DNA of 64,000 nt from Escherichia coli (lineage in GTDB: Bacteria > Pseudomonadota > Gammaproteobacteria > Enterobacterales > Enterobacteriaceae): NCBI RefSeq assembly GCF_044324875.1, contig NZ_CP172185.1; one strand, written 5' to 3'. A program made the position numbers and the translations under genes. This document shows, piece after piece, positions 30,371-58,099 of this stretch. Each line of letters opens with the position of its first letter. The stretch's first letter is position 1. The notes under the pieces were generated by a model. That model did not search any database and was not told the DNA's origin. It saw nothing but the letters and a program-made list of their open reading frames with translations.

Positions 30371-30373
30371 TAT

Positions 30374-36045: not shown

Positions 36046-36073
36046 CAGAAATAACCACAAGAGGTGATAACCG

Positions 36074-37213: not shown

Positions 37214-37215
37214 CC

Positions 37216-37998: not shown

Positions 37999-38100
37999 CG
38001 GCTGACCCCGTCAGAAGGCGGCGTGCCGGGCGTTCCGGTTACGGTTTTCCGTTCCCCTTACACCCGGCACCCACCGCTTTTTTTTCTGAAGGAGCGATTT

Positions 38101-41830: not shown

Positions 41831-42177
41831 CCGCTGTTTACAGGGGGATGAACCCGCAGGGAACCGGCACGCTGAGCGACAGCGAACACCTGAAAAACAG
41901 CGTGCGGGATATCCTGACCACACCGCCAGGCAGCCGGGTGATGCGCCGCGAATACGGCAGCCTGTTACCGGACCTCATCGACGAGCCCATGAACGACACC
42001 ACGCGTTTACAGTGCATGAGCGCCACGGTGACTGCGCTGGCGCGCCATGAACCCCGTATAGCACTGCAGAACGTCGATGTGAACTGGCGGGCTGGCGGAC
42101 GCGCCGTGGTGACGTTATCCGGCATCATCACCGAAACCATGCAGAACATCACATTCAGTATCACCCTGAGGGAGTAA
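41827..42177 (+). CDS. baseplate protein W (GPW/gp25 family)
   Basis: ATG 41827 overlapping V stop; 116 aa. Confidence 0.8.
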   Translation: MTAVYRGMNPQGTGTLSDSEHLKNSVRDILTTPPGSRVMRREYGSLLPDLIDEPMNDTTRLQCMSATVTALARHEPRIALQNVDVNWRAGGRAVVTLSGIITETMQNITFSITLRE

Positions 42178-42180
42178 ATC

Positions 42181-43077
42181 ATGCCTTCCGTTGACCTGTC
42201 ACAGTTACCGGAACCGGCCATCATCGCGCAGCCGGATTTTGAGTCCATCCTGGCAGACATTAAAACCATGATGGTGAGCTCCTTCCCGGAAGAATACCGC
42301 GCCGCCGTCACCCGTGCCCTTACTCTGGAATCCGAGCCATTGAACATCATTTCCCAGGCCATGGCCTTTCGTGAAATGCTGCTTCGCCAGCGCATCAATG
42401 AAGCCGCCCGCGCCTGCATGCTCAGCCACAGCCGGGGCAGTGACCTGGACAATCTGGCCGCCAACAACAACACCCGCCGCCTGGTCATTCATCCGGCCAC
42501 TGATACCACGGAAGCAGTGATGGAAAGCGACACATCGCTGCGTCTGCGTGCCCAGTCAGCCTGGGACGGCCTGAGTGTGGCCGGACCGTCCGGCGCGTAT
42601 GAGTATTTTGCCCGGAGCGCAAGCGGTCTTGTCCGTGATGCGCGCGCCATCAGCCCGTCACCGGCCACAGTCACCGTCTCCATCCTGTCAGCAGACGGTG
42701 ACGGCACCGCCGGTGAGGCGTTACTGAACACGGTGCGCACCGCCCTGAATGCCGAGAACGTGCGCCCGGTTGCCGACCGCCTGACTGTGCAGAGTGCTAC
42801 CATCGTGAACTGGGTAATGGAAGCGAAGCTGTATTTTTATCCAGGGCCGGAGTCTGAACCCATGCTTGCGGCCGCTGACGCCGCTTTCCGTGCATGGCTG
42901 GCAGACCAGGGCCGTATCGGTCAGGACGTGGCCCTGTCAGCCATCACTGCAGCGCTGCATGTTCACGGTGTCCAGCGCGTTGAGGTCATAAAACCCACGC
43001 AGAACATCACCATCAGTGACACTCAGGCAGCCAGATGTACCACATTCAGCATCAGCGAAGGAGGACGCAATGAGTGA
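42181..43077 (+). CDS. baseplate protein J
   Basis: 298-aa ORF; P2 order. Confidence 0.85.
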   Translation: MPSVDLSQLPEPAIIAQPDFESILADIKTMMVSSFPEEYRAAVTRALTLESEPLNIISQAMAFREMLLRQRINEAARACMLSHSRGSDLDNLAANNNTRRLVIHPATDTTEAVMESDTSLRLRAQSAWDGLSVAGPSGAYEYFARSASGLVRDARAISPSPATVTVSILSADGDGTAGEALLNTVRTALNAENVRPVADRLTVQSATIVNWVMEAKLYFYPGPESEPMLAAADAAFRAWLADQGRIGQDVALSAITAALHVHGVQRVEVIKPTQNITISDTQAARCTTFSISEGGRNE

Positions 43078-43798
43078 CAGGAAAAAAACAGACAGCGCAC
43101 AGCACAGTACATCACTGCTTCCACCGTCCGCAGGGCCATTCATGCGCGCCACAGAGGCGACAGGAGTACGCATCAGTGCCATACCGGTGGACGCCGACAC
43201 CCTGTGGTCGCCGGACCGCTGCCCTGCTCACCTCCTGCCCTACCTTGCATGGGCATGTTCCGTTGACCGCTGGGACCGCAACTGGCCGGAAGAGACCAGA
43301 CGACAGGTGATTGGCCAGTCCTGGAAGGTACACCGCCAGAAAGGAACGGTCAGCGCACTGAGGGAAACAGCCGCAGCATTCGGTTATGAGATGACCATCA
43401 GTGAATGGTGGGAGCATGGAGGGCAGCCGGGCACCTTTACTGTGACCATCGGGGCAGACACTCAGGGCATCGGCCCTGAAACATGGCTGGAGATGGAGGA
43501 TCTGCTCAATGATGCACGTCCGGTTTCACGTCATATGACGGGGCTTTATGCCGCCCTGCGTTCTGGCGTGACGGTTTACTGCGCTGCGGGAGCAGGCTGT
43601 GATGAGCTTGTAACCATTCACCAGAAAGCTCGCGCCTCCCTGGCGGGCCAGGTGACCATCATCGCAGCAGGAGACACACACACAACCGACAGTGTGACCG
43701 TACTGCCGGGGGTTCCGTCAGGTATGTACGGGGAGATCTGTATCCGTACCGGCGCAGGTATATTCGTGAGTGAGATTGTGGAGGTTATCACCTTATGA
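43070..43798 (+). CDS. baseplate/tail protein I
   Basis: ATG 43070 with GAAGGAGG RBS, overlapping J stop. Confidence 0.75.
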   Translation: MSDRKKTDSAQHSTSLLPPSAGPFMRATEATGVRISAIPVDADTLWSPDRCPAHLLPYLAWACSVDRWDRNWPEETRRQVIGQSWKVHRQKGTVSALRETAAAFGYEMTISEWWEHGGQPGTFTVTIGADTQGIGPETWLEMEDLLNDARPVSRHMTGLYAALRSGVTVYCAAGAGCDELVTIHQKARASLAGQVTIIAAGDTHTTDSVTVLPGVPSGMYGEICIRTGAGIFVSEIVEVITL

Positions 43799-44910
43799 AC
43801 ACCGATTTTTATTCCGTTCTGACGGATGCCGGGCTGAAAAAACTGGCGGCAGCCGCAGCATCAGGGAATCAGATGAAAATCACCCATATGGCTGTAGGCG
43901 ACGGAAACGGAAAAGCCGTAACACCCGGCAGGGCCGACACCAGGCTTGTCAGGGAAAAATACCGTGCGCCACTGAACAGTCTGGAAGAAGACACAGAGAG
44001 ACCGGGGCATGTTATCGCAGAAATGGTGATACCTGAAAAACAGGGAGGGTGGTGGATCAGAGAATTCGGATTATTCGACGAAGACGGCGGAATGATTGTT
44101 ACAGGCAAATTTCCTGACACATGGAAGCCTGCACCTGGTCAGGGTGGAGCACGACTGATATCAGTGAAAGTGGTTGTGGCAGTATCACATACAGAAAACA
44201 TTGTGCTGAAAGTGGATCCTTCTGTTGTCATGGCAACCCGGGAATGGGTGAACACAAAAGCAGAGCAGTTAAAGAAAGAGCTCAGACAACCTGATGCAAC
44301 CACCAAAACAAAAGGCATTGTTCAGCTTAGCAGTGACATCAACAGCACCTCTGAAACGCAGGCTGCCACCCCCGGAGCGGTAAAAGCCGTGAATGATCGT
44401 GTGGACGGAAAACAGGACGCGGATCCCACGCTCACATCTCTGTCCGGGAAAAATGCACAGCAACTGAGGCAGCTTCTGGGGCTGGGCACGCTTGCCACCC
44501 TGAACAGGGGCACCGGTTCAGGGAATGTGCCGGACATGAGTCACTTTGCGAGTAAAAAAGCAGACTACGGTTACCAGTGTTTTCCTGGCGGCATAATGAT
44601 CCAGTGGCTGCGGATCCCCTCAGACCACACAGGAAGAGCTGTCAGTCAGGAAGCCCGGGTGGCACTAAGCGGCGTGCGACTGTTTTCAGTGGAGGGTAAC
44701 TGGAACGGTAATAACATGATTAAGACCCTGGCAAACTACCAGTGGCCGAGAGTTTTCGGGGCAATTTATGCGACCGTTGCAACCAGGAATCACGGATCTG
44801 CATGGCGAGTATATCCGGTGTCCGCGAACAAGGATGTGCGTGTCGTATCCATTGCCTGGGCGGGAGAAGGTACAGATGACACTTATGTGGTTGGGGTGGG
44901 AAGAGTATGA
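43795..44910 (+). CDS. tail fibre protein (gpH-like, short)
   Basis: 371-aa ORF after baseplate I; conserved N-terminal fibre anchor region then divergent C-terminus. Confidence 0.7.
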   Translation: MNTDFYSVLTDAGLKKLAAAAASGNQMKITHMAVGDGNGKAVTPGRADTRLVREKYRAPLNSLEEDTERPGHVIAEMVIPEKQGGWWIREFGLFDEDGGMIVTGKFPDTWKPAPGQGGARLISVKVVVAVSHTENIVLKVDPSVVMATREWVNTKAEQLKKELRQPDATTKTKGIVQLSSDINSTSETQAATPGAVKAVNDRVDGKQDADPTLTSLSGKNAQQLRQLLGLGTLATLNRGTGSGNVPDMSHFASKKADYGYQCFPGGIMIQWLRIPSDHTGRAVSQEARVALSGVRLFSVEGNWNGNNMIKTLANYQWPRVFGAIYATVATRNHGSAWRVYPVSANKDVRVVSIAWAGEGTDDTYVVGVGRV

Positions 44911-45353
44911 AAATGATGTGGTCGCCGTCTGTGGGCGGTTTTTTTGGTGAAGACAGCAGCCATATACCGGAAGATGCGGTGGAGGTTGATGAATCGATGT
45001 GGAGCAGGATGATGGAGGGACAACTTGAGGGAAAAATTATCGTTAACGGCCCTGACGACCTGCCTGTTCTGGAAGAGCGTCCGGGACCGGGGCCAGAAGA
45101 ATACCGGCATCAGGCTCGCCTTGAGCTTGCTGACCTTCGCCGACAGGGGCTGGAACACATAGAGTCGATGCGCTGGCGTGACAAAGCGGTCATGAACAGG
45201 CTGGGAGAAGAGGAGAAGCAGGAGTATAACGCCTGGCTTGACTGGCTCGACGCGCTTGACAGTACGGACATATCAGGGGCACCGGATGTGGTGTGGCCGG
45301 TGATGCCCGTCACGGTGGTTCCTGAACATCCTCAGAAAAAATTGCCGGAGTGA
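44907..45353 (+). CDS. tail fibre assembly protein (gpG/Tfa-like)
   Basis: 148-aa ORF overlapping H stop; positional. Confidence 0.6.
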   Translation: MKMMWSPSVGGFFGEDSSHIPEDAVEVDESMWSRMMEGQLEGKIIVNGPDDLPVLEERPGPGPEEYRHQARLELADLRRQGLEHIESMRWRDKAVMNRLGEEEKQEYNAWLDWLDALDSTDISGAPDVVWPVMPVTVVPEHPQKKLPE

Positions 45354-45360
45354 ACAGCCT

Positions 45361-45386
45361 CCGGCCTGAGACTGCACTCAGGCCGG
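45361..45386. terminator. GC-rich hairpin ccggcctgag-actgca-ctcaggccgg between convergent G and U
   Basis: Seen in sequence. Confidence 0.4.
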
Positions 45387-45394
45387 AAATTCTG

Positions 45395-45841
45395 TTATCT
45401 GCCAGCATTGCGGATGATACCCGAAAGCATATCAGACACCGACGGCATCATTCGCTCCCGCAAATCCTCATCACAGCGTTCCATACTGACAGTGAACTCA
45501 ATTTTTTTGGCCTTACCGTGGCGGTCAAGTTCGCTTCGCGTTGTGCGGACAGCCGTTATCACATACATGCCGTATATCTGCCCCACACCGTCAATCAGCG
45601 GCCATGGGCGGCCAGTGTAAGCCTGCGTCGTTAAAAGGCTGAGGGAAACCTCACCGCCGGTAATTTCGGGATAAAGCACACCGGACAACGTGATCTGGTC
45701 GTCACCCGCCCCGATATACTGCCAGCTGGCCGAACGATTGATGCGTTCATTTTTAACGTGGCGCCAGGTTTTATTATGTTGCAGTTGTTGATGAGGCAGC
45801 GTACGCAACTCAAAAACAAACATGCCGTAAATCATCATCAT
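45395..45841 (-). CDS. tail protein U
   Basis: 148-aa ORF immediately downstream of tape measure gene on minus strand. Confidence 0.75.
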   Translation of the reverse strand: MMMIYGMFVFELRTLPHQQLQHNKTWRHVKNERINRSASWQYIGAGDDQITLSGVLYPEITGGEVSLSLLTTQAYTGRPWPLIDGVGQIYGMYVITAVRTTRSELDRHGKAKKIEFTVSMERCDEDLRERMMPSVSDMLSGIIRNAGR

Positions 45842-45852
45842 GCGAGGTACTC

Positions 45853-48800
45853 CTAATCTCTGTCACGGAAACTACCGACTGTCTGGCGGATACGGCGTTC
45901 CATTTCCGCACGGACGGCATCACCCACCATTTTTGCCAGTTCGCGCGGGTTTTGCGTGTGAACATCATGCAGGTGAATATGCAGTTCGCCAGTTAATCCC
46001 CATGGTGCCGGATCACTCTGACGCGGTCGGGGCGATGCGGGGGATATGGGCTGGCGCACAGCCTCAACCACCGGACGGGATGTTGCCGTTACGACGGGTG
46101 TCATTACCGGCGCAATATTGCCGGACACTACCGGTTTAATTACCGGGGAGAGCGTCGGTATAACATCGCCAGCCATAACCGGTTTGATCGCTGGCGAAAT
46201 AACCGGAGCAACAGACTCAGCCATGACGGAACTGACAGGCTGAGGCGCTCTCACTATGCCAGCATCGATAACCAGCATGAGCTCGCGTACTGCCTCAAGG
46301 ACAGGACGGGATATTGCCGCCATCACTGGTGTCATTAGCGGGGAGAACGTCGGCATGACATCGTGAGTCATAACCGGTTTGATCACCGGCGAAACCACCG
46401 GCGTAATATTACCGGACAGTACCGGACGGACGACCGGAGGAATAACCGGCACATTATTCACGGACACCACCGGCTTCACGACCGGCGACACGTTCGCCGT
46501 GGTGGATATCAGCGGCGAAACACTGACAGGCGGTGGCGCTGGCAGCGGTGGCAACGAAGGCACACTGACCGACGGCACCTGCGGCAGTCTGACAGGTGGC
46601 TCACTGACACTACCCGGTAACAGGGAAGCTGCGCGGTTAAAGCGTTCCTCCTTCCACTCACCACGAACGGCCAGCGCTTCCGGCAGGTTTTTAAAGATAA
46701 TATCGCCGGGACCAGTGCGTTTTTTCGCCTGTTTCGCCTCATCCAGCAGGCCACCGGTGTTATCGACGATTTTATTCAGGCGACGCATGGTGCCGGTATT
46801 CTCCCCCGTCAGCGGAGCAGTTGCTGCAGGTGCAGGTACTGGCGGCTTTTTGTCTTTGTCATTTTGCGGCGGATTAATGACATTAACATCCGCCAGGAGC
46901 ATGGCGGCTTTCTCGTTCAGCAGCTCCTTCTGCTTCAGCTCTTCCGCCTTTTTCCGGGCGCGCTCAACCGCCGACGGAATCAGCCCGAGTTTTTCCAGCA
47001 CCCGGGTTAATGAGTCAATCAGCAGCGTAACCGGACCGGTCACCAGATTGCTGATAAACTCCCCGACCTTCTGCCCGAACGTCCGCCCGGCTTCCGTGCA
47101 CTTGTCCAGCTCATCCTTTGTTGTGCTTACCGGCGCGAACAAATCCACGAACCACTGCCACACACGCCCGATTGTCTGCCCGACATACTCAAACAATGGT
47201 CCCAGTGGTGCCACAGCCTCGCGCAGTGGCGTAAGCCCCTGCCACAGGCCGGACAAGAACCCGCCCACGACAGCCTTCAGCTGGTCCCAGTGCCGCCAGA
47301 TAAGCACTGCCGCACCGACCAGTGTCGCCACCACAAGGCCCACCGGACTTAACAGAAAACCCAGCGCCCCGCCAAGTGCGCCCACCGCACCACTCACCAT
47401 CCCCCACAGTGCGGGCAGACCTGACAGTCTGAGCGCCAGTATTCCGATACCGCGCCCCAGTGAAATCAGTGCGCCGCCAGGTGAAGTGAACGCAGCCAGC
47501 AGACCACCACGCAGCGCGCCAAGTCCCGCCTGCACACCACGAAGCCGCCCCGCAACTACGCCCAGCAGTGCAGCAAACCGTCCGGCACCGGAGGTGATAC
47601 CGACAAACAGCACGCGCCAGCCACCGATACCGCCCAGCGGACCACCGAGTACGCCGCGCAGCTGCGTCAGTAACGGCAGCGCACGACCGAGGCCGGATGT
47701 GCCGGTCAGCAGGGCAAACCCAAGACGCAGTTTTGCCAGCGGCCCCATCAACACACCAGTGGCAAGTGACAGCGCCCCCATGGCCGCAACCGCAGCCAGC
47801 AGTGCACCACCGGCAATCAGCAGTTGTTTTGTCAGTTCAGGGTGCGCCTGGGCCAGCGCGGTGACTTTCGCAATAACCCGGGTGAACGACTGCGTGACAG
47901 AACGCAGCGGCCCGTCAACGAGGTCAGCGACACGGATACGCAGCCCTTCCCATGCGCTGTTCAGTGATTTCAGGTCGCCGTCCAGGTTGTCCGCCATGAT
48001 TCTGGCGTTTTCTTCCAGTTCGCCGTTCGCTGCCTGAATCTCACGCGTCAGGCGCGGCAGGTTTTTTTCGCCTGCCTGTTCAACCAGGCTCATCAGGGAG
48101 ACATACGCCTCCTGCCCGGCAATATCTGAAAAGAACGAGACTTTTGCCGCGTTACCGTATTTACGGGTGGCCTGATACAGCTCATACAGGATATCTTCCA
48201 TCGGGCGCATGTTCCCGTAAGCATCCTGCGTTTCCACGCCCAGCTGTTTCAGCGCCTTTGCTGCCGCTTTAGGCGGGTTCACAAGGCGGGACAGACTGGA
48301 GCGCAGCGCCGTACCAGCATCACTGCCACGTATCCCCATCGACCCAAGCAACCCGGTCATGGCTGCGGTCTGTTCAAGAGACAGACCGAGTGAGGCGGCG
48401 ACCGGTCCCGTATATTTCATCGTCTCACCAAGCCCGCGCAGGTCGGTATTGGTGCGGGTGAACGTTGCGGCCAGCGTGTCACCCACGCGGTTCATCTGGT
48501 CGGCAGACAACCCGAACTGCGTAAGGATATTTGAGCTGATATCGGCCGTCTGACCGAGGTCCATGCCGCTGGCCGTTGCCAGATTCAGCACGCCGGGAAG
48601 AGCCGCCTGTATCGCCTGCGGCGTGAACCCCGCCATGGCAAGGAACGCCTGACCGCTGGCAGCATCACCTGCGGTAAACTGCGTTTCGGAGCCGAGTTTA
48701 AGCGCCTGTTCGCGCAGCGCCTTAAACTGCGGACTGTTTTTGTCAATACGGGTCAGCGCCTGGACGCGCGACATCTCCTTACCAAAACTGACCGCCGGTT

Positions 48801-49395
48801 GCAGGAAACGCCCGGCCGCATAGCCACCTGCCGCTGCCGTGCCGACTGCCGTAAATCCACCCGCTTTCAGTTTTCCCGCCATCTCCTGAGCGCGGAAATA
48901 TTGCTGGCGTGCCTGCGTGACGCGTGCCAGAGTCTGCCGTTCACGTTCCAGCTGTTCGTTGTATTGCTGTGTTCGCCGTATGGCCTGTTGAATGGTGTTG
49001 TCACTGCCGGAAAGCGCAATACCGTGACGCCGCAGCTCACCACCCAGTTCGCGCATTCGCTGAACTTCACGCGCACGGACCTCATTGAGACGCTCAAGTT
49101 TGAGGCTCAAATCGTTCATCAGCTTTTTCTGTTTGTCAGACAGCACGGTTCCGGCGCGCTGAATTTGCTGAAGTGCGCTTAACTGGCGTTGTGCCCGGGC
49201 AATGCCGTTTCCGGCCTTGTTTGCAGCCTCGCGGGCGCGATCAAATGAACGGGCGTGGCGTTCCAGGTTTTTGATCGCACCCTGCGTTCTCTGTATGGAG
49301 TCGCCAAGCTGGCCCATCATGCGACGGGCGTTTTCGGTGGGACGGGTCAGCCTGTCAACAGCGCTGAAGGCGACCCGTATATCAAGCGTTTTCAT
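45853..49395 (-). CDS. tail tape measure protein (gpT-like), start taken at MKTLDIR
   Basis: Very long Ala/Gly-rich ORF with Pro/Val-rich repeats near C-terminus; ORF track start at 49431 is a GTG. Confidence 0.85.
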   Translation of the reverse strand: MKTLDIRVAFSAVDRLTRPTENARRMMGQLGDSIQRTQGAIKNLERHARSFDRAREAANKAGNGIARAQRQLSALQQIQRAGTVLSDKQKKLMNDLSLKLERLNEVRAREVQRMRELGGELRRHGIALSGSDNTIQQAIRRTQQYNEQLERERQTLARVTQARQQYFRAQEMAGKLKAGGFTAVGTAAAGGYAAGRFLQPAVSFGKEMSRVQALTRIDKNSPQFKALREQALKLGSETQFTAGDAASGQAFLAMAGFTPQAIQAALPGVLNLATASGMDLGQTADISSNILTQFGLSADQMNRVGDTLAATFTRTNTDLRGLGETMKYTGPVAASLGLSLEQTAAMTGLLGSMGIRGSDAGTALRSSLSRLVNPPKAAAKALKQLGVETQDAYGNMRPMEDILYELYQATRKYGNAAKVSFFSDIAGQEAYVSLMSLVEQAGEKNLPRLTREIQAANGELEENARIMADNLDGDLKSLNSAWEGLRIRVADLVDGPLRSVTQSFTRVIAKVTALAQAHPELTKQLLIAGGALLAAVAAMGALSLATGVLMGPLAKLRLGFALLTGTSGLGRALPLLTQLRGVLGGPLGGIGGWRVLFVGITSGAGRFAALLGVVAGRLRGVQAGLGALRGGLLAAFTSPGGALISLGRGIGILALRLSGLPALWGMVSGAVGALGGALGFLLSPVGLVVATLVGAAVLIWRHWDQLKAVVGGFLSGLWQGLTPLREAVAPLGPLFEYVGQTIGRVWQWFVDLFAPVSTTKDELDKCTEAGRTFGQKVGEFISNLVTGPVTLLIDSLTRVLEKLGLIPSAVERARKKAEELKQKELLNEKAAMLLADVNVINPPQNDKDKKPPVPAPAATAPLTGENTGTMRRLNKIVDNTGGLLDEAKQAKKRTGPGDIIFKNLPEALAVRGEWKEERFNRAASLLPGSVSEPPVRLPQVPSVSVPSLPPLPAPPPVSVSPLISTTANVSPVVKPVVSVNNVPVIPPVVRPVLSGNITPVVSPVIKPVMTHDVMPTFSPLMTPVMAAISRPVLEAVRELMLVIDAGIVRAPQPVSSVMAESVAPVISPAIKPVMAGDVIPTLSPVIKPVVSGNIAPVMTPVVTATSRPVVEAVRQPISPASPRPRQSDPAPWGLTGELHIHLHDVHTQNPRELAKMVGDAVRAEMERRIRQTVGSFRDRD

Positions 49396-49908
49396 GCTCT
49401 GCGTTCCCGCTGCGAAGGGCCGCCCGCTCACGCCAGGCGACCACCTCGCCGGGATCCATCAGGAAGATTTCAGCGGGAGACCAGTTGAAAATAACGGCGA
49501 TATCCGCCACAAAGTCTTCAATATGCTCAAAGGGCACGACGGTTATCAGCCTGCCGTCGCCGCCACGCTCTTCCCGCCAGAGTCCTGACCGGCCAAAAAA
49601 TTAACCGCCACCCCGCACAGCTGAATAAAATCAGCGGACCCCATGCGCTTAAGCAGAACCTCGTCCAGTCGCGGCGAAGTGACGCGCGGGAGTAACTCAA
49701 ACATCGCGTCCGTTTTCATGTTCAGCACGTCAAGCAGTGACAGCCCGCGCAGTGAACCGGCCTGCTGTACAGCAGGCGTGATTTCCACATACGTGATTTT
49801 TTTGTTACCGAGCACAAGGGGCGTTTTCAGCGTCACGCCGCGCTCACTGGTCACGTCCGCCGCATCAGCACCGTCAGTAACAGGGGCAACAACCGGATTT
49901 TCTTTCAT
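49382..49908 (-). CDS. tail assembly chaperone E' (E+E' product via programmed -1 frameshift)
   Basis: Slippery heptamer T TTT TTG (minus strand; plus-strand CAAAAAA at 49594-49600); -1 frame stays open to 49382, overlapping tape measure start. Confidence 0.5.
49546..49908 (-). CDS. tail assembly chaperone E
   Basis: 120-aa ORF between tube and tape measure genes; ends shortly after slippery TTTTTTG. Confidence 0.75.
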   Translation of the reverse strand: MKENPVVAPVTDGADAADVTSERGVTLKTPLVLGNKKITYVEITPAVQQAGSLRGLSLLDVLNMKTDAMFELLPRVTSPRLDEVLLKRMGSADFIQLCGVAVNFLAGQDSGGKSVAATAG

Positions 49909-49958
49909 GCATAAAACCTCAAATCAGGGGGCGACGCCGCGCGCCGCCGTGGAAAACA

Positions 49959-50477
49959 TTAACCACCAAGACCAATCGCCGAGCGCACGCGGTCCGGGAA
50001 GACGCTTTTGCCGTCCTTGCGTTCGATGTGGTTCAGTAAATCAATCTCCAGCACCGGACGGTCGTTAATGCTGAGTTTGTAGTAGGTACTTTTGACCGCA
50101 TAGGTGTGAGACGTGACCTCACCCTGTTTGGCCTCCCCGGTATCAATTTCCGTCACGCGACCGCGAAGCTCAATCTCGTACAGGTCACTCTGTTCTTCAT
50201 CGTTGTAGTACTCACCGACAAAGCGCAGCAGCGTACCGTCAATCGTTCCGCCGTACTTGAGGAACAGTTCGCGGGTCGGCCCGCCCATGGTGAAACTCGC
50301 ATCCAGCGCGCCGTCATCCAGGCCAAGGTCGATATTTACTGCACCGGCCATACCACCACCGCGATAGGCTTCCGTTTTACGGGTCAGTTTGGGGGGCGTG
50401 AAGCCGGTCACCCTGCCAATCTGGTTCACCCCGTCAGTAAACAGCGTGAACACCCTGAGATTTTTTGGTACGGCCAT
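49959..50477 (-). CDS. tail tube protein (FII)
   Basis: 172-aa ORF, start overlaps sheath gene stop. Confidence 0.85.
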   Translation of the reverse strand: MAVPKNLRVFTLFTDGVNQIGRVTGFTPPKLTRKTEAYRGGGMAGAVNIDLGLDDGALDASFTMGGPTRELFLKYGGTIDGTLLRFVGEYYNDEEQSDLYEIELRGRVTEIDTGEAKQGEVTSHTYAVKSTYYKLSINDRPVLEIDLLNHIERKDGKSVFPDRVRSAIGLGG

Positions 50478-50805
50478 TAAGCACCTCCAAGCGTCGCAAA
50501 TGCAGGACCAAAGAATTCATCAGTAAACGTCTGGTAAAGTTCCATATCCTCAAGCGGCGGAACGGGCGTGTACTTGTAGCGGATACGCACGCGTCCCTGA
50601 CGAAGTTCCGTGGTGCTGTTATCCACCACGTCATACCAGCACTCCGCACCAACGAGACGTCCTGACGTAACCAGCGCATCCAGTTTTGCGCGAATTGCGC
50701 TTAACACGTCTTTCACATTAGCAGGGGTCAGCGGGGCATCAATCGTTTCAAACTGCGCTTCCGCAACAGAATCAGCCAGCACCTGATGCAAAATGGCATC
50801 TGAAT
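50477..50805 (-). pseudogene. tail sheath (FI) C-terminal fragment, separated from N-terminal part by an IS
   Basis: Frame ...AIDSDAILHQVLADSVAEAQF...RIRYKYTPVPPLEDMELYQTFTDEFFGPAFATLGGA ends where tube gene starts; 5' boundary approximate. Confidence 0.6.
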
Positions 50806-50988
50806 CGATCGCAGTTTGGCATTCGAATCGATCATGATTTGGCATCCATCTCCGATCACAGTTTGGCATCACAATCGATCACGATTTGGCATGCTTCCGA
50901 TCATTGATTGGCATCCTGCCAGTCACTCCGGGAATTAACTCTTTTCACCACAGTCTCCATTGCCGTGTTTAAACCAGTGGAGACGTCA

Positions 50989-52554
50989 ATGTCCAGAAAG
51001 AGAAAATCCAGGAGCACTATGGAAACCTGTTTTAAGATCCTTCAGCTCAAGTTCGACAAGAAGCTGACTAACCGTTGTATCGGACTGACGTTACACATCA
51101 GCGCCTCAACCGTTTTTGAGGTTCTTGCCCGCTTCAAAGCCTCTTCTCTGTCATGGCCATTACCTGCTGATATATCCCATGACACGCTGGAGAAACTCAT
51201 TTTTCCGCCCAAAGACACCTTTGCATCAGAGCTTGTAATGCCTGACATGTTGTACTTCGATACGGAAATGAGAAAACCAGGTGTGACGCGGCAACTGTTG
51301 TGGATGGAATACAAGGCACAGGCGGGTAACAAAGCGATGGGATACTCGCACTTCTGCCGTTGCTACCGGGAGTGGAAAAAAACGCGACGTCTCTCCATGC
51401 GCCAGGAGCATCGTGCCGGCGAAAAGCTTTTTATCGACTTCTGTGGTCCTACGGTTCCTGTTATTAATCCGGACACCGGTGAGATACGCCGCGTGGCAAT
51501 CTTCGTGGCCGTAATGGGGGCGTCCAACTATACCTACGTTGAAGCGTGCGAAGGTCAGGACATGATGTCATGGTTAAATGCCCACAGCCGTTGCCTGACC
51601 TTCCTGGGCGGCGTACCGAAGCTGCTCATCCCCGATAACCTCAGAAGCGCAGTGAAAAAGGCCGATCGATATGAGCCTGTCATCAACGACAGTTATCAGG
51701 CACTGGCTGAGCACTATGGCACGGTTATCATCCCGGCCCGACCACGCAAACCTAAAGATAAACCAAAAGCAGAAAACGGCGTCCTCATCGTTGAACGATG
51801 GCTTCTTGCCCGCATCCGTAATGAAACCTTCCACACGCTCAGGGCGCTGAATGCGCGCCTTAGGGAGTTACTGACAGACATGAATAACCGGCCAATGAAG
51901 GGGTACGGCAATCAAACCCGTGCAGAACGCTTCCGCATACTGGATGCGCCAGCACTCTCTCCGCTGCCTCTGGCACCTTATGAATACACGGAATACAAAG
52001 CTGTGAAGGTTGGCCCTGACTACCACGTTGAATATGCCCGTCACTGGTACTCCGTTCCACACGAACTGGTCGGTCAGCGTCTGTCACTGAAGGCGGGGCA
52101 GTCGGTGGTACAGCTCTGGCACAAGGGGCAGTGTGTGGCGCAACATCCGCGCAGCACACATGAATATAAACACACAACCAATCCGCTTCACATGCCAGAG
52201 CGCCACCGGCAGCACGGGACATGGACACCGGAACGCCTGATCGAGCAGGGAAAACGTACGGGCCCGTCCACAGGCCGGGTGGTTGAATCCATGCTGAAGG
52301 CAAAACCCCATCCGGAACTGGCTTATCGTGCAGTTCTGGGGCTGCTGGCACTTCAGAAAAAATACGGCCCGGAACGGCTGGAAAAGGCCTGTTACGTTGC
52401 CCTGCACTATAACGCCCCTGACAGACGCTTTATCGACAATCTGCTGCGTCACCATCGGGAGAACCTGGAGCTTCCATTATCCCGCCAGGGCGAACAACAT
52501 CCGGCATATGCTTCAGAGCATGAAAACCTGCGTGGTCCGGGCTACTACCACTGA
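50989..52554 (+). CDS. istA: IS21-family transposase IstA
   Basis: N-terminal HTH, DDE-type central region; start taken at MSRKRKSRS (ATG 50989). Confidence 0.85.
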   Translation: MSRKRKSRSTMETCFKILQLKFDKKLTNRCIGLTLHISASTVFEVLARFKASSLSWPLPADISHDTLEKLIFPPKDTFASELVMPDMLYFDTEMRKPGVTRQLLWMEYKAQAGNKAMGYSHFCRCYREWKKTRRLSMRQEHRAGEKLFIDFCGPTVPVINPDTGEIRRVAIFVAVMGASNYTYVEACEGQDMMSWLNAHSRCLTFLGGVPKLLIPDNLRSAVKKADRYEPVINDSYQALAEHYGTVIIPARPRKPKDKPKAENGVLIVERWLLARIRNETFHTLRALNARLRELLTDMNNRPMKGYGNQTRAERFRILDAPALSPLPLAPYEYTEYKAVKVGPDYHVEYARHWYSVPHELVGQRLSLKAGQSVVQLWHKGQCVAQHPRSTHEYKHTTNPLHMPERHRQHGTWTPERLIEQGKRTGPSTGRVVESMLKAKPHPELAYRAVLGLLALQKKYGPERLEKACYVALHYNAPDRRFIDNLLRHHRENLELPLSRQGEQHPAYASEHENLRGPGYYH

Positions 52555-52570
52555 CAGAAGGAACAACAGT

Positions 52571-53326
52571 ATGAGTGATAACCTGTTAAACAAACTGACC
52601 CAACTGAAACTCCCGGCGATGGCCGGGAGCCTGATACGGCAGCGGGAAACGCCTCAGACCTACGACGAACTGTCGTTCGAGGAAAGGCTGACGCTGCTGG
52701 TTGATGACGAGCTTCTGAGCAGGGAAAACAGCCGTGTGGCACGGTTGAGAAAAAATGCCGGCCTGAAATACCAGGCAACACCGGAAGGGCTGCGCTATCC
52801 GGCCTCAAGAGGTCTGCGGGCTGAACAGATGAGAGAACTGCTGAACGGCCACTACATAACCCACAGGAAAAACCTGCTGATAACCGGTCCGACAGGATGT
52901 GGCAAGAGCTGGATAGCCAATGCGCTGGGCGAACAGGCATGTCGACAGAAACACAGCGTCCGGTACTGTAGAACCGGGCGATTACTGGAACAACTGGCTC
53001 AGGGACGTGTTGATGGCAGCTGGCTGAAATATCTGAAACAGTTGCAAAAAATACAGGTTCTAATCCTGGACGATCTGGGGCTGGAACAGTTAAGTAACGC
53101 CCAGTGTAATGACCTTCTGGAGCTCATAGAGGATCGTTACGGACAAAGCAGCACGATAGTGGTAAGCCAGTTCCCGGTAGATAAATGGCATGGTCTGATG
53201 GAGAACCCAACAACAGCAGATGCCATCCTGGACAGACTGGTACATAACTCACACCGAGTGGTCCTTCAGGGAGAGTCACTGAGGAAAAATCCCCCGGTAG
53301 TGGAAAGCAGCGAAAAAACGCGTTAA
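52571..53326 (+). CDS. istB: IS21-family helper ATPase IstB
   Basis: Start MSDNLLNKLTQLKLP; Walker A GPTGCGKS, Walker B ILDDLG. Confidence 0.9.
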   Translation: MSDNLLNKLTQLKLPAMAGSLIRQRETPQTYDELSFEERLTLLVDDELLSRENSRVARLRKNAGLKYQATPEGLRYPASRGLRAEQMRELLNGHYITHRKNLLITGPTGCGKSWIANALGEQACRQKHSVRYCRTGRLLEQLAQGRVDGSWLKYLKQLQKIQVLILDDLGLEQLSNAQCNDLLELIEDRYGQSSTIVVSQFPVDKWHGLMENPTTADAILDRLVHNSHRVVLQGESLRKNPPVVESSEKTR

Positions 53327-53409
53327 AAAGCGGTAGAAAAAGTTAAGTTCCCGGTTGATCGAATGGATGCGAATCGCTGATCGGACTTCGATGCCAATCC
53401 GTGATCGAA

Positions 53410-54406
53410 TAGAGCGGAATACGCACACCTGAGCGGTTCGCGTGTACACCTCAAAGATATACGCCTTCGTTTCCGGCGTACGGTTGCCCCAGAAGCGGAA
53501 ACCGTTACGGCGAATGATGGTGGTGATTTCCTTGTTGTTGAGATTGTTGGCATCGCTGTCTTCGGACTGAAGGGACCAGAACACCGGGCTGGAAATACCC
53601 AGCACATTTCTTACCGGCACGTTGGACAGCGATTTATGCCAGCCCTGTTCGTGGTCAATACGTGCACGTAAACCGCAGGCGTACGCCGCAGCCGGGAAGA
53701 CCTCATTAGCGCCGGATTTCGGGTTATGGGCGATGAAGTCAGGCCAGAGCAGCATAAGTTCGCGCTCGTTAAATCTGGCGCGGTAGCTGATTGCATCAGC
53801 GGGCTTCTTGCAGTTGTGACAGCCCGCGTAGACAAATGCGCGAAGTTTTTCTGCAATTACACACAGGGATTTTGTGACAGCTTCAGTATCCAGTCCGGGC
53901 GCTGCGATGATGCGCGGACGGTAACCGATGGCATCATCCTGTTCAGCTATCAGAAGTGCATACATACCGGTATAATTACCGTCGCCATCCGTGCCACCAA
54001 TGACATACTGGTCCTGCGTTTTGTGTGGGTATACAGGATGTGCATCTTCAGACTCATCAATACCAAAAAATGCCCTGTCTTCAGGATCCAGATGACCGAA
54101 TGATGTAACTCCTGTATCCGGGGCGCCCTGAGAACTGGCATCAGGAACGCGCACCACAATCACCTTCGTGCTCACCTGGTCGGCGACAGCCTTAAGCGAT
54201 TTGTAAAGCGTCCCCTTTGTGCCGGCCTTACCCAGCACATCACTGACGCGGGTCAGCAGTGTGGGTTTGTTCAGCGGGAACAGAGTTTCATCCGCGTCAT
54301 CTGCCGTAGCCACAATACCAATAACACTGGAATCCACATCATTAATGGCGGTGGCAAGGCCGGTACTTTCCCTTACGCGCGCACCATGAAAGCGTGTTTC
54401 ACTCAT
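53410..54406 (-). pseudogene. tail sheath (FI) N-terminal fragment interrupted by IS
   Basis: Start MSETRFHGARV at ATG 54406; frame runs into IS right end where translation becomes IS-derived. Confidence 0.65.
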
Positions 54407-54490
54407 ATGTTTCACCCTTGTCTGGCTGGTTGATTTTGCGTAATCATTACCCACGATGCCGCCGGTATCATCTCCTGCCCGTTCTCACCG

Positions 54491-54506
54491 TTCGCTTACA
54501 ACAAAC
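54491..54506. promoter_or_regulatory. late-promoter-like motif TTCGCTTACAACAAAC upstream of D (same 16-mer as at 35128-35143)
   Basis: Exact 16-mer shared with the scaffold-gene promoter region. Confidence 0.3.
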
Positions 54507-54566
54507 AGCCGTTCACCACGGTCGCACGCCGTGAAAACATGACGGGACACACCACGAGGGCAGACC

Positions 54567-55658
54567 ATGACCGACCTGTTAATCAACGTTCCGTCACCGG
54601 ATATCGAAATCACCATCAACAACAACAGACTCCGTAACGTCACGGAGCGGCTCATGACGCTGTCACTGACCGACAACCGGGGCTTTGAGGCGGACCGCGT
54701 CACCCTGACCATTGACGACGCGGACGGGCAGCTTCAGCTGCCACAGCGCGGCGCACGCCTGAACGTGATGATTGGCTGGCGCGGGGAGGCGCTGGTTAAC
54801 AAGGGTGTCTACATCGTTGATGAAGTGACGTGGGAAGGCCCGCCGGACAAACTGACCATCACCGCCAGCAGCGCCGATTTTCGCGAAGAGTTCAACGTGA
54901 AGCGTGAAGTCTCCTGGCACGACGTGACGGTAAAACAGGTTGTGTCAGCCATCGCGCACCGCTACGGCCTGAAAGCACAGATAAGCGATATCCTCATGGA
55001 TATCGAAATTGACCACGCAGACCAGACCGAAGAGAGCGATATATCCTTCCTGACCCGCATGGCTGAAATGCTGGGTGCGATTGCCACCGTAAAAAACGGC
55101 AGCCTGTTATTCATTCTGCCGGGTGGCGGAACCGGGCCGGACGGAAAAGCCCTGCCTTCGTTCGCCATTACCCGCAGCAGCGGCGACAGTCACCGCTTTC
55201 GCATTGCTGACCGTGATGCGTATACGGGGGTCCGGGCGCACTGGCTCGATCTGAAGTTCGGGCAAAAGAAAAAAGTGAACGTGAAGCGACGCAGGGAAGC
55301 CGGGAAACAGAAACAGGAGAAGAGCAGCAGCCGGGAAGGTGATTACATGGAGGGCGCGGAAGGGAACGTCTACGTTCTGCGCAGGACTTACCAGAATGAA
55401 GAAACCGCACGACGTGCAGCAGCTGCAAAGTGGCAGGAACTACAGCGGGGCGCGGCATCATTCTCCATCACGCTGGCGCGCGGTCGTGCCGACCTGTACC
55501 CTGAAATGCACGGCAGGGTAACAGGTTTTAAAAGCGAGGTGGACAATCAGGACTGGATTATTGCCAGGGTGGAGCACAGCATAGATGAAAGCGGCTTCAC
55601 CACACAACTGGAGCTGGAAGCGAAAATCCCCGAATGGATAGCAGATTCAGGCGGATAA
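54567..55658 (+). CDS. late control/tail protein D
   Basis: 363-aa ORF directly upstream of ogr-like gene, as in P2. Confidence 0.85.
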   Translation: MTDLLINVPSPDIEITINNNRLRNVTERLMTLSLTDNRGFEADRVTLTIDDADGQLQLPQRGARLNVMIGWRGEALVNKGVYIVDEVTWEGPPDKLTITASSADFREEFNVKREVSWHDVTVKQVVSAIAHRYGLKAQISDILMDIEIDHADQTEESDISFLTRMAEMLGAIATVKNGSLLFILPGGGTGPDGKALPSFAITRSSGDSHRFRIADRDAYTGVRAHWLDLKFGQKKKVNVKRRREAGKQKQEKSSSREGDYMEGAEGNVYVLRRTYQNEETARRAAAAKWQELQRGAASFSITLARGRADLYPEMHGRVTGFKSEVDNQDWIIARVEHSIDESGFTTQLELEAKIPEWIADSGG

Positions 55659-55701: not shown

Positions 55702-55953
55702 ATGTTCCGTTGTCCCCTGTGCGGTGCATCCGCACGTATCCGCACCAGTCGCAATGAAAATGATTCAGGCACAGTTCGCCTGAAGTACTACCAGTGCAAT
55801 AACCTCGAATGCGGGATCGGCTTTACCACACTGGAGGGTTTTAACAAATTCACATCAAAACGCGCCCCGTCGCCGCAGGGTACAGAGCGGATACCGTGGG
55901 AAGATTTTCCGGGATCTCACAGGGGGAATGCTCAGATGAATCTTGATATTTAA
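55702..55953 (+). CDS. ogr: Ogr/Delta-family zinc-finger late transcription activator
   Basis: MFRCPLCG...YYQCNNLECG Cys4 arrangement; position after D. Confidence 0.8.
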   Translation: MFRCPLCGASARIRTSRNENDSGTVRLKYYQCNNLECGIGFTTLEGFNKFTSKRAPSPQGTERIPWEDFPGSHRGNAQMNLDI

Positions 55954-55965
55954 GAACAATAATCA

Positions 55966-56097
55966 GGTTGAGAGGACATCATAAGGCAAGTAGATTAACG
56001 GCAGATACTTTCCCGCAACCACGGGCAAGTATTTAATTATCCATGATGAAATATGACCTAAATTGTTTTTTGCCCGCCGGAAAGCGGGCATTTTTTT
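55966..56097 (+). repeat. repeat unit 1 (GGTTGAG...GTAGATTAAC...hairpin+T-run), candidate small RNA
   Basis: Shares 5' GGTTGAG, GTAGATTAAC core, TTATCCATGAT and terminal gcccgccNNNNNNgggc+T7 with units 2/3. Confidence 0.3.
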
Positions 56098-56311
56098 ATT
56101 CTTTTGTGGTTATGGGGTCATCAGGAACCACGTGCAGATTATATTTTTGTTTTTTTGGCGTTCCTCCGGCAGCAACGAGTTCATCAATAAGACACTGACA
56201 CGCCTGAACATCCCGGGCATGTCTTAGTTTCACCTTTATTGATTTAACCTTATCCTCACCGGAGGAGAAATGCAGTTCAATCTCAATATCGTTTCTTCGG
56301 AACAATCTCAT
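56096..56311 (-). CDS. hypothetical small protein, paralogous to C-terminal half of ORF 20215-20631
   Basis: 71-aa ORF with RBS AGGGGGG; similarity noted by eye. Confidence 0.5.
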   Translation of the reverse strand: MRLFRRNDIEIELHFSSGEDKVKSIKVKLRHARDVQACQCLIDELVAAGGTPKKQKYNLHVVPDDPITTKE

Positions 56312-56580
56312 ACGCCCCCCTGAATATATCAGAAATGCTAGTATCGAAAAATGAGAAAACAGTTAGACAGGAGAAACATATTAACACAAATCATTTATAC
56401 CTATAGATGAAATTATAATTTCATTCATGAATATGATAGATAACTATATTGTGAACAAAATGAAAAATGGCTAAATTAAAAATGGGCATGGAGGAATGCC
56501 TCGTAATCAGTAATACATGATCCATACTTCCTTGTTTTGCCCGCCGGAAAGCGGGCATTTTTTTGGCGGTTACCATCGCC

Positions 56581-56765
56581 TCACCTTCCTGGTTCACACA
56601 AAGCAACCCTGATTTTCCATGAAAACTTCAGGGTTGAGCCAAAAGCACAAAGACAGTAGATTAACCAAGGGTACCCGCCACCTGCCAACAGGAACGGTAT
56701 CCAGTACGTATTAATGACTGACAATTCACATTGCTGTTTTGCCCGCCAGAAGGTGGGCATTTTTT
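56581..56765 (+). repeat. repeat unit 2 (~203-bp period) ending in intrinsic terminator, candidate small RNA
   Basis: Near-identical to unit 3 with scattered substitutions; terminator stem 56740-56757 + T-run. Confidence 0.35.
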
Positions 56766-56783
56766 TGGCAGTTATCATGGACG

Positions 56784-56968
56784 CACCTTCATGACACATA
56801 TTAAGCAGACCTGATTTTTCCATGAAAAATTCATGGTTGAGACAAAAGCACAAAAACAGTAGATTAACCACGGGTGCCTGCCACCTGACAACAGGAAGGG
56901 GTGTCCATTATCCATGATATACAAACGAAAAGTCTTGTCTTTTGCCCGCCGTTGCGCGGGCTTTTTTT
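56784..56968 (+). repeat. repeat unit 3 ending in intrinsic terminator, candidate small RNA
   Basis: As unit 2; terminator stem 56943-56960 + T8 overlaps hicB stop. Confidence 0.35.
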
Positions 56969-57366
56969 TATCCAAGAACCCTGTCTGCAGCAACACGCGC
57001 CAGAAATCCAGAGCGGCTACCGTATTCAGGATGAGACTCAACGAACTGATCAATGCGACGAATAAGCAGAGATGGCAGGGTAACATTGATTTTTTCCGAT
57101 TTCCCCATCAGGCGGGACACATCCACCTCAACGAGCGCCCACACTGCATCACTGTATTCAGGATCTGATTGCCATTCATCAAGATTTGTAGCGACAGGGA
57201 TAGACTCACCAGATTCAACCAGTAATTCTACGTGTGCCTCAATGGCTTCACGGGCACTGTCTACCGCATCCTGAAAACTATCACCGCCAGAAAAACAGCC
57301 GGGCAGATCTGGGACGCGAACACCAAAAGATGAATCCCCCCGGTCAATAGCGATTGCATATAACAT
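56968..57366 (-). CDS. hicB: HicB-family antitoxin
   Basis: MLYAIAIDRGDSSFGVRVPDLPGCFSGGDSFQDAVDSAREAIEAH... typical HicB N-domain; C-terminal RHH-like tail. Confidence 0.8.
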   Translation of the reverse strand: MLYAIAIDRGDSSFGVRVPDLPGCFSGGDSFQDAVDSAREAIEAHVELLVESGESIPVATNLDEWQSDPEYSDAVWALVEVDVSRLMGKSEKINVTLPSLLIRRIDQFVESHPEYGSRSGFLARVAADRVLG

Positions 57367-57388
57367 TGAGACCTCCAGAAGGTGGGGC

Positions 57389-57568
57389 TTACAGCCCCGC
57401 CTGTTTCTTAATACTTTTTAAAGTTGGTAAAGGTATATCTTTTTGAGGGTGTTTTACCGTTACCAGCCCCTTCTTTGTCGGATGTTTGAATTGATGATGA
57501 CTCCCCTTAACCCTAACAAGATACCATCCATCCGCCTCTATCATTGCTATTGCACTTTTGCTATCCAT
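57389..57568 (-). CDS. hicA: HicA-family toxin (59 aa; absent from ORF track)
   Basis: Manual translation of minus strand: MDSKSAIAMIEADGWYLVRVKGSHHQFKHPTKKGLVTVKHPQKDIPLPTLKSIKKQAGL; 20 bp upstream of hicB. Confidence 0.75.
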   Translation of the reverse strand: MDSKSAIAMIEADGWYLVRVKGSHHQFKHPTKKGLVTVKHPQKDIPLPTLKSIKKQAGL

Positions 57569-57704
57569 CCCCCCGTACTCCGTCTTTCGTTGTTGGAGTT
57601 ATTATAACCCCAACAACTAGTCAAAGCAAGGGTTCGGAGTTATTAGAGTTATAGAATAATTGACTGCCTCCCCAAAACTGCGGCAAGAAAAAACCACTGA
57701 CCAC

Positions 57705-57722
57705 GGTCAATTTGTGGATCAT
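57705..57722. repeat. 18-bp repeat ggtcaatttgtggatcat inside prophage right arm
   Basis: 17/18 match to 20201-20218. Confidence 0.3.
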
Positions 57723-57760
57723 GAATTAATTTTTATTTATAAATCAATGCATTATACAAA

Positions 57761-57782
57761 GAAAAAAGGCCGCAGAGCGGCC
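57761..57782. repeat. attR core gaaaaaaggccgcagagcggcc (part of ihfA terminator hairpin)
   Basis: Identical to 20087-20108; followed by T-run, i.e. intact terminator after ihfA. Confidence 0.7.
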
Positions 57783-57799: not shown

Positions 57800-58099
57800 T
57801 TACTCGTCTTTGGGCGAAGCGTTTTCGACCCGGCTTTTTAACTTCTGCCCGGGTCTGAAGGTCACCACGCGCCGTGCTGTAATGGGAATATCCTCGCCCG
57901 TTTTCGGGTTACGTCCCGGGCGTTGATTCTTATCACGCAGATCGAAGTTACCAAAACCAGAGAGTTTCACCTGTTCGCCGTTTTCCAGAGCGCGACGGAT
58001 CTCTTCGAAAAACAGTTCAACCAGTTCTTTGGCATCCCGCTTGCTAAGCCCAAGCTTATCAAACAGATATTCTGACATTTCAGCTTTTGTAAGCGCCAT
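57800..58099 (-). CDS. ihfA: integration host factor alpha subunit
   Basis: 99-aa [57 protein letters not shown]... Confidence 0.95.

Follow-up and report, generated by a model that had tools for sequence, protein, structure and literature searches.

The Escherichia coli DNA analysed here (a stretch of 64,000 nucleotides, termed the window) carries a prophage of the P2 family (Peduoviridae), in which the tail genes FI-FII-E-T-U lie on the opposite strand to the baseplate and fibre genes V-G and to the late control gene D. We propose, with a probability of roughly 85%, that the FI-U segment was inverted once in an ancestor, that the resulting layout has been inherited in a fixed form together with a putative two-node Ogr control of the late genes, and that this particular copy carries an insertion sequence (IS) in addition. 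The layout itself is already known.

Prophage and tail genes in the window

The prophage occupies about 20084–57782, beside the host gene ihfA (57800–58099, minus strand). A repeat search identified the 25-bp direct repeat AAAGAAAAAAGGCCGCAGAGCGGCC at both ends: the attL copy (20084–20108) marks the left end beside the integrase gene (20594–21706), whose product matched tyrosine recombinases, and the attR copy (57758–57782) is located directly downstream of ihfA. PHROG matches revealed a P2-type morphogenetic module, and the PGAP names in a nearly identical prophage that is free of the IS (the IS-free twin) agreed with them. The genes are ordered as Q-P divergent from O-N-M-L, followed by the lysis genes, R-S, V-W-J-I-H-G, and the sheath/tube/E/T/U/D genes. 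An Ogr/Delta-type activator system was recognized from the ogr gene and from two dyads, which are located at 35117–35140 and 54480–54503. In an NCBIfam scan, no family was assigned to the cargo ORFs at 28.6–32.2 kb or to a HicAB-like pair.

A preliminary description of this DNA had placed FI-FII-E-T-U on the minus strand and the fibre genes, D, and ogr on the plus strand, and the ORFs and their PHROG matches confirmed this assignment. On the plus strand, the tail fibre gene H (43795–44910; 371 aa; phrog_6202 and other tail-fibre families) is followed by G (44907–45353; phrog_188), which encodes a tail fibre assembly protein and closes the O-to-G late transcription unit. The genes at 45395–54406 are all on the minus strand. 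The final gene of this block is that of the tail protein U (45395–45841; phrog_76, E 1.5e-67), and it is preceded by the intact tape measure gene T (45853–49431; 1192 aa; phrog_28), the E' frameshift extension ORF (49382–49537; GpE family, as annotated by PGAP in the IS-free twin), the tail assembly chaperone gene E (49546–49908; phrog_103) with a TTTTTTG slippery site close to its end, the tail tube gene FII (49959–50477; phrog_55; 'major tail tube protein' according to PGAP in the twin), and the sheath gene FI. D (54567–55658; phrog_52, E 2e-152), encoding a late control D/baseplate hub protein, and ogr (55702–55953; phrog_603 and PGAP name), encoding an Ogr/Delta-like zinc-finger late activator, are again on the plus strand. 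The four cysteines of the ogr product are arranged as C4-X2-C7-X24-C32-X4-C37, with the X24 spacing differing from the X22 quoted for P2.

G and U are therefore convergent, separated by a gap of 41 bp (45354–45394), and FI and D are divergent, separated by a gap of 160 bp (54407–54566). Overlapping convergent terminator-like hairpins were identified at the G/U gap (45344–45387). The hairpin of the plus strand (45360–45387) has an 11-bp stem and a weak T tail, and that of the minus strand (45365–45344) is followed by AATTTTTTCT. Another terminator-like hairpin (56071–56090, plus strand), followed by TTTTTTTATT, is present downstream of ogr.

FI is split by an IS of the IS21 family (ISSso4-like; 50787–53425, plus strand; 2,639 bp), which had been overlooked in the preliminary description. 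Its boundaries were determined by alignment to the IS-free twin. The N-terminal fragment of FI (53426–54406; ~325 of 427 codons) matched phrog_23 positions 12–377, and its true ATG, at 54406, is the one that PGAP annotates in the twin; the C-terminal fragment (50477–50786), identified by the same alignment and by a match to phrog_23 positions 374–475, comprises approximately the last 102 codons and the stop. The element contains istA within 50908–52554 and istB ending at 53326, has TGC...GCA ends, and is flanked by a 7-bp target duplication, CACCTGA, at 50780–50786 and 53426–53432. With a score of 284 bits, the match to the model NF033546 exceeded the cut-off of 160. Copies of 100% identity, annotated by PGAP as 'IS21 family transposase' and 'ISSso4 family helper ATPase IstB', were found in many other E. 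coli genomes. Like other members of the family, the element combines istA and istB with a length of 2.6 kb, TG...CA ends, multiple terminal repeats, and a 7-bp duplication; nothing about it is unusual, and only its target, the sheath gene, is notable. Because the IS is present, the minus-strand block measures 9,012 bp; its native length is 6,366 bp (~6.4 kb). The ~9.2 kb proposed earlier as the size of an inversion was thus inflated. As FI opens the minus-strand operon, the IS, which is present in this copy only, would eliminate the sheath and have a polar effect on FII-U, and the prophage is probably tail-defective.

Activator sites and predicted promoter geometry

The preliminary description had also reported that a late-promoter motif reappears upstream of D. 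The 16-mer TTCGCTTACAACAAAC was indeed found in exactly two copies in the window, at 35128 in the P/O intergenic region and at 54491 in the FI/D intergenic region, and an exact repeat of this length within 64 kb is beyond chance expectation. The first copy is contained in a perfect dyad, TGTTGT-N12-ACAACA (35117–35140), flanked by P (terminase; minus strand, ATG at 35054) and O (scaffold; plus strand, ATG at 35209). This dyad is predicted to be the shared Ogr activator site of the divergent promoters pP and pO. The second copy is contained in the dyad CGTTCT-N12-ACAACA (54480–54503; centre 54491.5), whose left half-site matches the ideal TGTTGT at four of six positions, and which is the predicted single Ogr activator site common to the divergent promoters pF and pD. 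The late promoters of P2 are Ogr-dependent and share a TGT-N12-ACA consensus (PMC3931495).

In the pP/pO node of P2, the equivalent of p12/pV in 186, one dyad lies midway between divergent late operons. The site centre is at 3071.5 and the mapped starts are at 3016 and 3127, so that the starts are ~111 bp apart and the centre is at −55.5 for both. In the 186 record, p12 and pV share a single annotated B-binding site, and the P2 record likewise gives one site for its divergent pair. The starts in the FI/D gap were accordingly predicted at ±55.5 from the dyad centre, which placed pF at ~54436 and pD at ~54547, with the −10-like hexamers AATGAT and AAACAT, respectively, at −12 to −7. This geometry matches that of the P2 node, and the FI/D region shares its exact 16-mer with the P/O node of the same prophage. 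Unlike the P2 pP/pO node, the FI/D node is a prediction for this clade.

In an alignment of the FI/D region from eight genomes, the conserved columns comprised the dyad, both −10 blocks, and a GC-rich spacer. The distance from the dyad centre to the ATG of D was 68.5–76.5 nt in all eight genomes, and that to the ATG of FI was 81.5–88.5 nt in seven; the FI start of the eighth, ST16-OXA48phi5.4, is uncertain. The pP/pO type is defined by a single partial dyad centred ~−55 from both divergent starts, a weak −10, and no −35; the FI/D dyad, its spacing, and the −10-like hexamers fit this type and are conserved, with both starts being predicted positions. The earlier suggestion that the repeated motif would allow independent expression of D thus gained comparative support from the geometry and the eight-genome conservation, and such expression is predicted from the sequence. 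A consensus sigma-70 scan gave no match in the FI/D gap, as is expected for activator-dependent late promoters. In a search of the window, no third activator site equivalent to that of pV was detected. This is consistent with the overlap of S and V in the clade, which leaves no separate pV.

It could be considered that the layout is typical of the lineage but that D has a separate or constitutive promoter of its own, the dyad being used by pF only. The weakness of the pD −10 candidates (AAACAT in the window and GATCCT in phiT5282H) would agree with such an arrangement, as would the lack of a sigma-70 consensus promoter in the gap, although late P2 promoters need not match that consensus. However, the 160-bp gap contains a single dyad, the distance from this dyad to D equals that from the P/O site to O in the eight genomes, and conservation extends to the plus-strand block CGCGCGC-ATG-AACCAT on the downstream side of this dyad. 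Furthermore, P2, 186, and Smp131 are earlier examples of two divergent promoters being served by one site. We therefore regard a separate promoter for D as unlikely.

Strand layout in related phages

The preliminary description had given these genes as co-directional in P2, and the P2 record does annotate one F operon, 'FI, FII, E, E', T, U, D', in the same direction as V-G. The co-directional layout was also found in 186, Fels-2, and phiCTX. The strand layout of the window, on the other hand, is common to P88 and other Xuanwuvirus phages, e.g. 520873, 500465-2, and P884B11, and was also found in 3LV2017 (Reginaelenavirus), phiT5282H (Novemvirus), ST16-OXA48phi5.4 (Reipivirus), SEN4/5 (Senquatrovirus), and Serratia phage KSP20. 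Reference phages of five ICTV Peduoviridae genera carry this layout, and a tblastn orientation table agreed, giving one orientation for every clade member examined. The preliminary description had left the choice between an inversion or assembly error and a lineage-specific arrangement, and had named a common occurrence in reference P2-family genomes as evidence against the former. Such an occurrence was found in P88, the other genera, and KSP20; the lineage-specific arrangement was upheld, and a recent local inversion or misassembly was not.

As a query, the FI/D junction was collinear in 41 of 60 phage records among the matches listed and in 29 of 5,426 complete E. coli genomes. With a U+D fusion as the query, U and D were adjacent in 384 of the 511 GenBank phage records having a D homologue and apart in ~48, and these ~48 records contained the closest D proteins (57–78% identity). 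A neighbour-joining tree was constructed from FI+FII+D of 11 genomes with rooted bootstrap replicates. The inverted-layout clade was recovered in 100% of 1,000 bootstraps, with the window as sister to P88. Since the inverted-layout phages are monophyletic, one old inversion explains them. The distribution among the outgroups suggests that the co-directional layout is ancestral.

P88 and the other Xuanwuvirus phages share with the window an identical gene order, i.e. V-W-J-I-H-G (plus), U-T-E'-E-FII-FI (minus), D (plus), and ogr (plus), proteins of 72–86% identity, and the architecture of the FI/D intergenic region including the CGTTCT-N12-ACAACA dyad. In contrast, G and U of P88 are separated by an invertible fibre segment and an invertase gene, and those of the window by only the 41-bp gap; the DNA similarity is low (~73–78% over limited stretches); T of the window is 257 aa longer, with a Pro/Val-rich insert of ~185 aa relative to P88 T; and FI is interrupted by the IS in the window. 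Megablast of the 14-kb tail region only gave 9% coverage at ~77% identity with Xuanwuvirus, the ICTV genus criterion being a nucleotide identity of ~70% or more over the full genome, and blastn of the FI/D junction only gave ~73% identity over 92%. The P2 F operon (pF-FI-FII-E-E'-T-U-D, then ogr) resembles the block of the window in gene content, internal gene order, and the E/E' frameshift, and P2 likewise has an Ogr-type activator and sites of the TGT-N12-ACA type. However, the P2 block is co-directional with V-G and ends with D, whereas in the window FI-U is inverted, with the whole block between D and U. In addition, P2 has a separate pV, which the clade of the window lacks, and the identity of P2 P, N, J, U, T, FII, FI, and D with the window proteins was only 33–55% (tblastn).

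A recent, strain-specific inversion of ~9.2 kb, with the G/U and FI/D junctions as its endpoints, would explain why the layout is unlike that of P2, 186, Fels-2, and phiCTX. This is very improbable, as the layout is identical in the IS-free twin, an E. coli prophage of 99.8% identity at a different chromosomal site, and is also present in the 29 complete E. coli genomes and the reference phages of five genera. Moreover, both junctions hold conserved, functional-looking signals, namely the terminators and the promoter node. In a search for inverted repeats, which the preliminary description had proposed as a check on the breakpoints, no pair with arms near 45354–45394 and 54407–54566 linked the two junctions, and the pairs listed were short chance matches in genes or IS ends.

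We give just as little credence to a programmed segment flipped by an invertase of the Gin/Cin/Hin type, as in tail-fibre segments. In relatives such as P88, the fibre genes and U do flank a DNA invertase gene. No explicit description of an inverted tail block was found in the searchable literature, and the nearest mention was a preprint that notes, for the G/FI hotspot of P2, invertases together with 'inversion of adjacent region genes'. However, tblastn with the P88 and Fels-2 invertases detected no homologue in the window (best E-value 2.7), no inverted crossover sites were found around the block, and the clade members examined all have the single orientation. That an invertase may have caused the original inversion is speculation. 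Finally, an assembly error that reversed a contig segment is the least credible reading, since nothing specific indicates it beyond the fact that the IS copy within the block could in principle mislead short-read assemblers, whereas the junction sequences are base-for-base the same in independent complete genomes and isolated phage genomes and the IS sits inside FI with a clean 7-bp duplication, at neither junction.

Proposed origin of the second Ogr node

Here, we propose a model based on the ancestral inversion. The segment pF-FI-FII-E/E'-T-U would have been inverted once in the common ancestor of the sub-clade, with D and ogr keeping their orientation, and this inversion would have brought the Ogr-dependent activator site of pF beside D. 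The FI/D site is a partial dyad of the TGT-N12-ACA class, and its position halfway between FI and D would allow it to serve two divergent promoters ~110 bp apart, as the P/O site does in P2 and 186. Two bidirectional Ogr nodes would then drive all late genes, one transcribing P-Q and O-to-G and the other FI-to-U and D(-ogr), and the overlapping G/U hairpins would terminate both of the long convergent units. The geometry and its conservation are the basis for inferring where transcription starts, that pD depends on Ogr, and that both promoters share the site. We consider the odds to be even that a second bidirectional Ogr node arose through the ancient inversion, in which one FI/D dyad drives both sheath-to-U and D(-ogr), so that two sites run the late programme. 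The late programme of P2 uses three site regions for four promoters, compared with the two activator sites proposed in this clade. No description of two-node Ogr control in this clade was found in the searchable literature.

The significance of the layout beyond correct annotation is slight. In the P2-like prophages of this clade, the strand switch is no reason to report a rearrangement or misassembly, and synteny-based prophage callers built on the P2 order must accommodate the inverted block. The IS21 insertion marks this copy as probably defective, which is relevant to predicting its inducibility. For a second bidirectional Ogr promoter with a single site, the FI/D gap is a good candidate; if it is one, it would offer an easy test of how well a dyad activator site tolerates operon inversion. 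If the model is true, the placement of D beside the dyad-symmetric pF site would be what made the inversion viable.

Tail-gene orientation and an IS21 element in FI

The window contains a P2-family prophage, and a repeat search placed a 25-bp direct repeat at both of its ends (20084-20108 on the left and 57758-57782 on the right; core AAAGAAAAAAGGCCGCAGAGCGGCC). The left end carries a tyrosine integrase, and the right end lies immediately 3' of ihfA in the host chromosome, beyond which are pheS and pheT. This right host flank was found in 5,425 of 5,426 complete E. coli genomes, and four complete E. coli genomes have the prophage at the same ihfA site. The core repeat resembles the terminator hairpin 3' of ihfA. 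The closest twin, an IS-free prophage of E. coli 24A16CRGN010 with 99.8% identity, adjoins copA at a different chromosomal site. Hence, near-identical phages use at least two attachment sites.

Genes were identified from the ORF listing and PHROG searches of the window. H (43795-44910) and G (44907-45353) lie on the plus strand, as do D (54567-55658) and ogr (55702-55953). Between them, U (45395-45841), the tape measure gene T (45853-49431), E' (49382-49537), E (49546-49908), the tube gene FII (49959-50477), and the interrupted sheath gene FI lie on the minus strand. The start codon of FI, an ATG at 54406, was taken from the PGAP annotation of the IS-free twin; the intergenic gaps are therefore 45354-45394 (G/U) and 54407-54566 (FI/D), matching those in the preliminary description. 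The FI-to-U block is thus on the strand opposite to the fibre genes and D/ogr, as had been proposed. The co-directional order described for P2 was also borne out: in the P2 record, "FI, FII, E, E', T, U, D" are annotated as one F operon running in the same direction as V-G.

The block had been estimated at about 9.2 kb, a size that overlooked an IS in FI. Compared by alignment with the 24A16CRGN010 prophage, the window carries 2,639 additional bp (50787-53425) with the 7-bp sequence CACCTGA duplicated on either side (50780-53432 in all). The insert encodes IstB and IstA, the latter scoring 284 bits with NCBIfam NF033546, for which the cut-off is 160. Many E. coli chromosomes and plasmids carry 100% identical copies, named IS21 family or ISSso4 family by PGAP. 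Without the insert, the native block, counted between the stop codon of U and the start codon of FI, measures 6,366 bp. FI is broken at about codon 325 of 427, and FII-U is probably silenced through polarity too, since the genes of the IS are oriented opposite to the operon. This prophage copy is probably tail-defective.

The T protein has 1192 aa, versus 935 aa in phage P88. The additional ~185 aa (residues about 932-1116), near the C-terminus, are Pro/Val-rich and loosely repetitive (PVV/PVI/KPV motifs). PGAP calls the identical T ORF of the twin a C-terminally incomplete pseudogene; the frame is open in both genomes. The Ogr homologue has cysteines spaced C-X2-C-X24-C-X4-C, compared with C-X2-C-X22-C-X4-C quoted for P2 Ogr.

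Distribution and origin of the inverted layout

The arrangement is already present in reference genomes. P88 (Xuanwuvirus) encodes V-W-J-I-H-G and D on the same strand, with U-T-E'-E-FII-FI between them on the opposite one. The same layout is annotated in Klebsiella phages 3LV2017 (Reginaelenavirus) and ST16-OXA48phi5.4 (Reipivirus), Enterobacter phage phiT5282H (Novemvirus), Salmonella phage SEN5 (Senquatrovirus), and a fragment of Serratia phage KSP20, whereas the block is co-directional in P2, 186, Fels-2, and phiCTX. By the refutation test set in the preliminary description itself, a new inversion or an assembly artefact is therefore refuted, and the other reading offered, a lineage-specific arrangement, holds. 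No paper spelling out this tail arrangement was found in the searchable library.

A blastn query of the FI-5'/D-5' junction matched 149 phage records, with 41 of the 60 matches listed spanning the junction on one strand; among 5,426 complete E. coli genomes, 29 matched it collinearly. A tblastn query made by artificially fusing U and D hit 511 phage records; U and D were adjacent as in P2 in 384 and separate in about 48. Among the matches listed, records with U apart had the D closest to that of the window (57-78% identity versus at most 51% for P2-type phages). A separate tblastn orientation table agreed with this result.

Neighbour joining on concatenated FI, FII, and D from 11 genomes (847 ungapped columns, phiCTX as root) placed the inverted-block phages in one clade, supported by 100% of 1,000 bootstrap replicates. 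The co-directional state is most likely ancestral, because U-D adjacency reaches very distant relatives (Burkholderia, Ralstonia, Mannheimia, and Xanthomonas phages, 26-44% identity by the fusion query). One old inversion is the parsimonious explanation. There is no sign of a recent or switchable event: no inverted repeats pairing the G/U and FI/D junctions and no invertase homologue were found in the window, and the block had the same orientation in every clade member examined.

Hotspots and cargo

The 41-bp G/U gap (45354-45394) is the counterpart of the P2 Z/fun hotspot and is empty in the window, whereas P88 carries an invertible fibre segment and an invertase there (25416-27564), and ST16-OXA48phi5.4 a DUF262 protein and a hypothetical protein (28611-30514). 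It is speculative whether such an invertase, present at this hotspot in some relatives, was the cause of the original inversion.

The region between ogr and attR (55960-57760) has a low GC content of about 44%. It holds, on the minus strand, a HicA-like ORF (57389-57568) and a HicB-like ORF (56968-57366; HicB family antitoxin by PGAP in matching genomes). Short reading frames at 56421-57086 repeat a similar peptide (AKKMP.F.RAKQ), suggesting repeated DNA. The copA-site twin departs from the window sequence beyond 56969. The counterpart of the P2 old/tin hotspot, 28600-32200, is bordered by the replication gene (26118-28292) on one side and portal Q (32248-33303) on the other. Six ORFs of 119-234 aa, on both strands, occupy it; they had no NCBIfam match and are possible accessory or defence cargo.

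A proposed shared activator site between FI and D

The late-promoter 16-mer said to recur upstream of D indeed occurs exactly twice, at 35128 (P/O gap) and 54491 (FI/D gap). Both copies sit inside dyads of the TGT-N12-ACA type, the consensus of the Ogr-dependent P2 late promoters (PMC3931495): TGTTGT-N12-ACAACA at 35117-35140 and CGTTCT-N12-ACAACA at 54480-54503. A site search found no further good activator dyad elsewhere in the prophage.

At P2 pP/pO, the annotated dyad is centred at 3071.5 and the mapped starts, 3016 and 3127, are each 55.5 nt away; in phage 186, just one B-binding site is annotated for the divergent promoters p12 and pV. Applying the P2 geometry to the FI/D dyad (centre 54491.5) predicted starts at ~54436 and ~54547. 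AATGAT and AAACAT, which span -12 to -7 of these starts, are comparable to the hexamers that P2 has in this position (GAAACT, TAGCCT, and GAAAAT). When eight clade members were aligned, invariant columns fell in four elements: the -10 block of the predicted FI promoter, the two half-sites, the GC-rich spacer, and the stretch just before the -10 of the predicted D promoter. The dyad centre lies 68.5-76.5 nt from the D ATG in all eight genomes. Its distance to the ATG of FI is 81.5-88.5 nt in seven of them; where FI begins in ST16-OXA48phi5.4 is uncertain. Because the geometry is that of the P2 divergent pair, and the elements and spacing are conserved, we propose that this single dyad would drive both FI-U and D.

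S and V (40647-41830) overlap and the P2-style orf30/pV interval is absent, so the clade would have no pV. From O to G (35209-45353), the genes seem to make up a single unit of about 10 kb. Likely terminators are the hairpins that overlap in the G/U interval (45344-45387) and, 3' of ogr, one followed by a T-run (56071-56090). As in P2, ogr may have kept a promoter of its own, to judge from a TAAAAT pair at the stop codon of D. The late genes of the clade would run from two bidirectional nodes, and the bidirectional FI/D promoter model is a small, testable addition.
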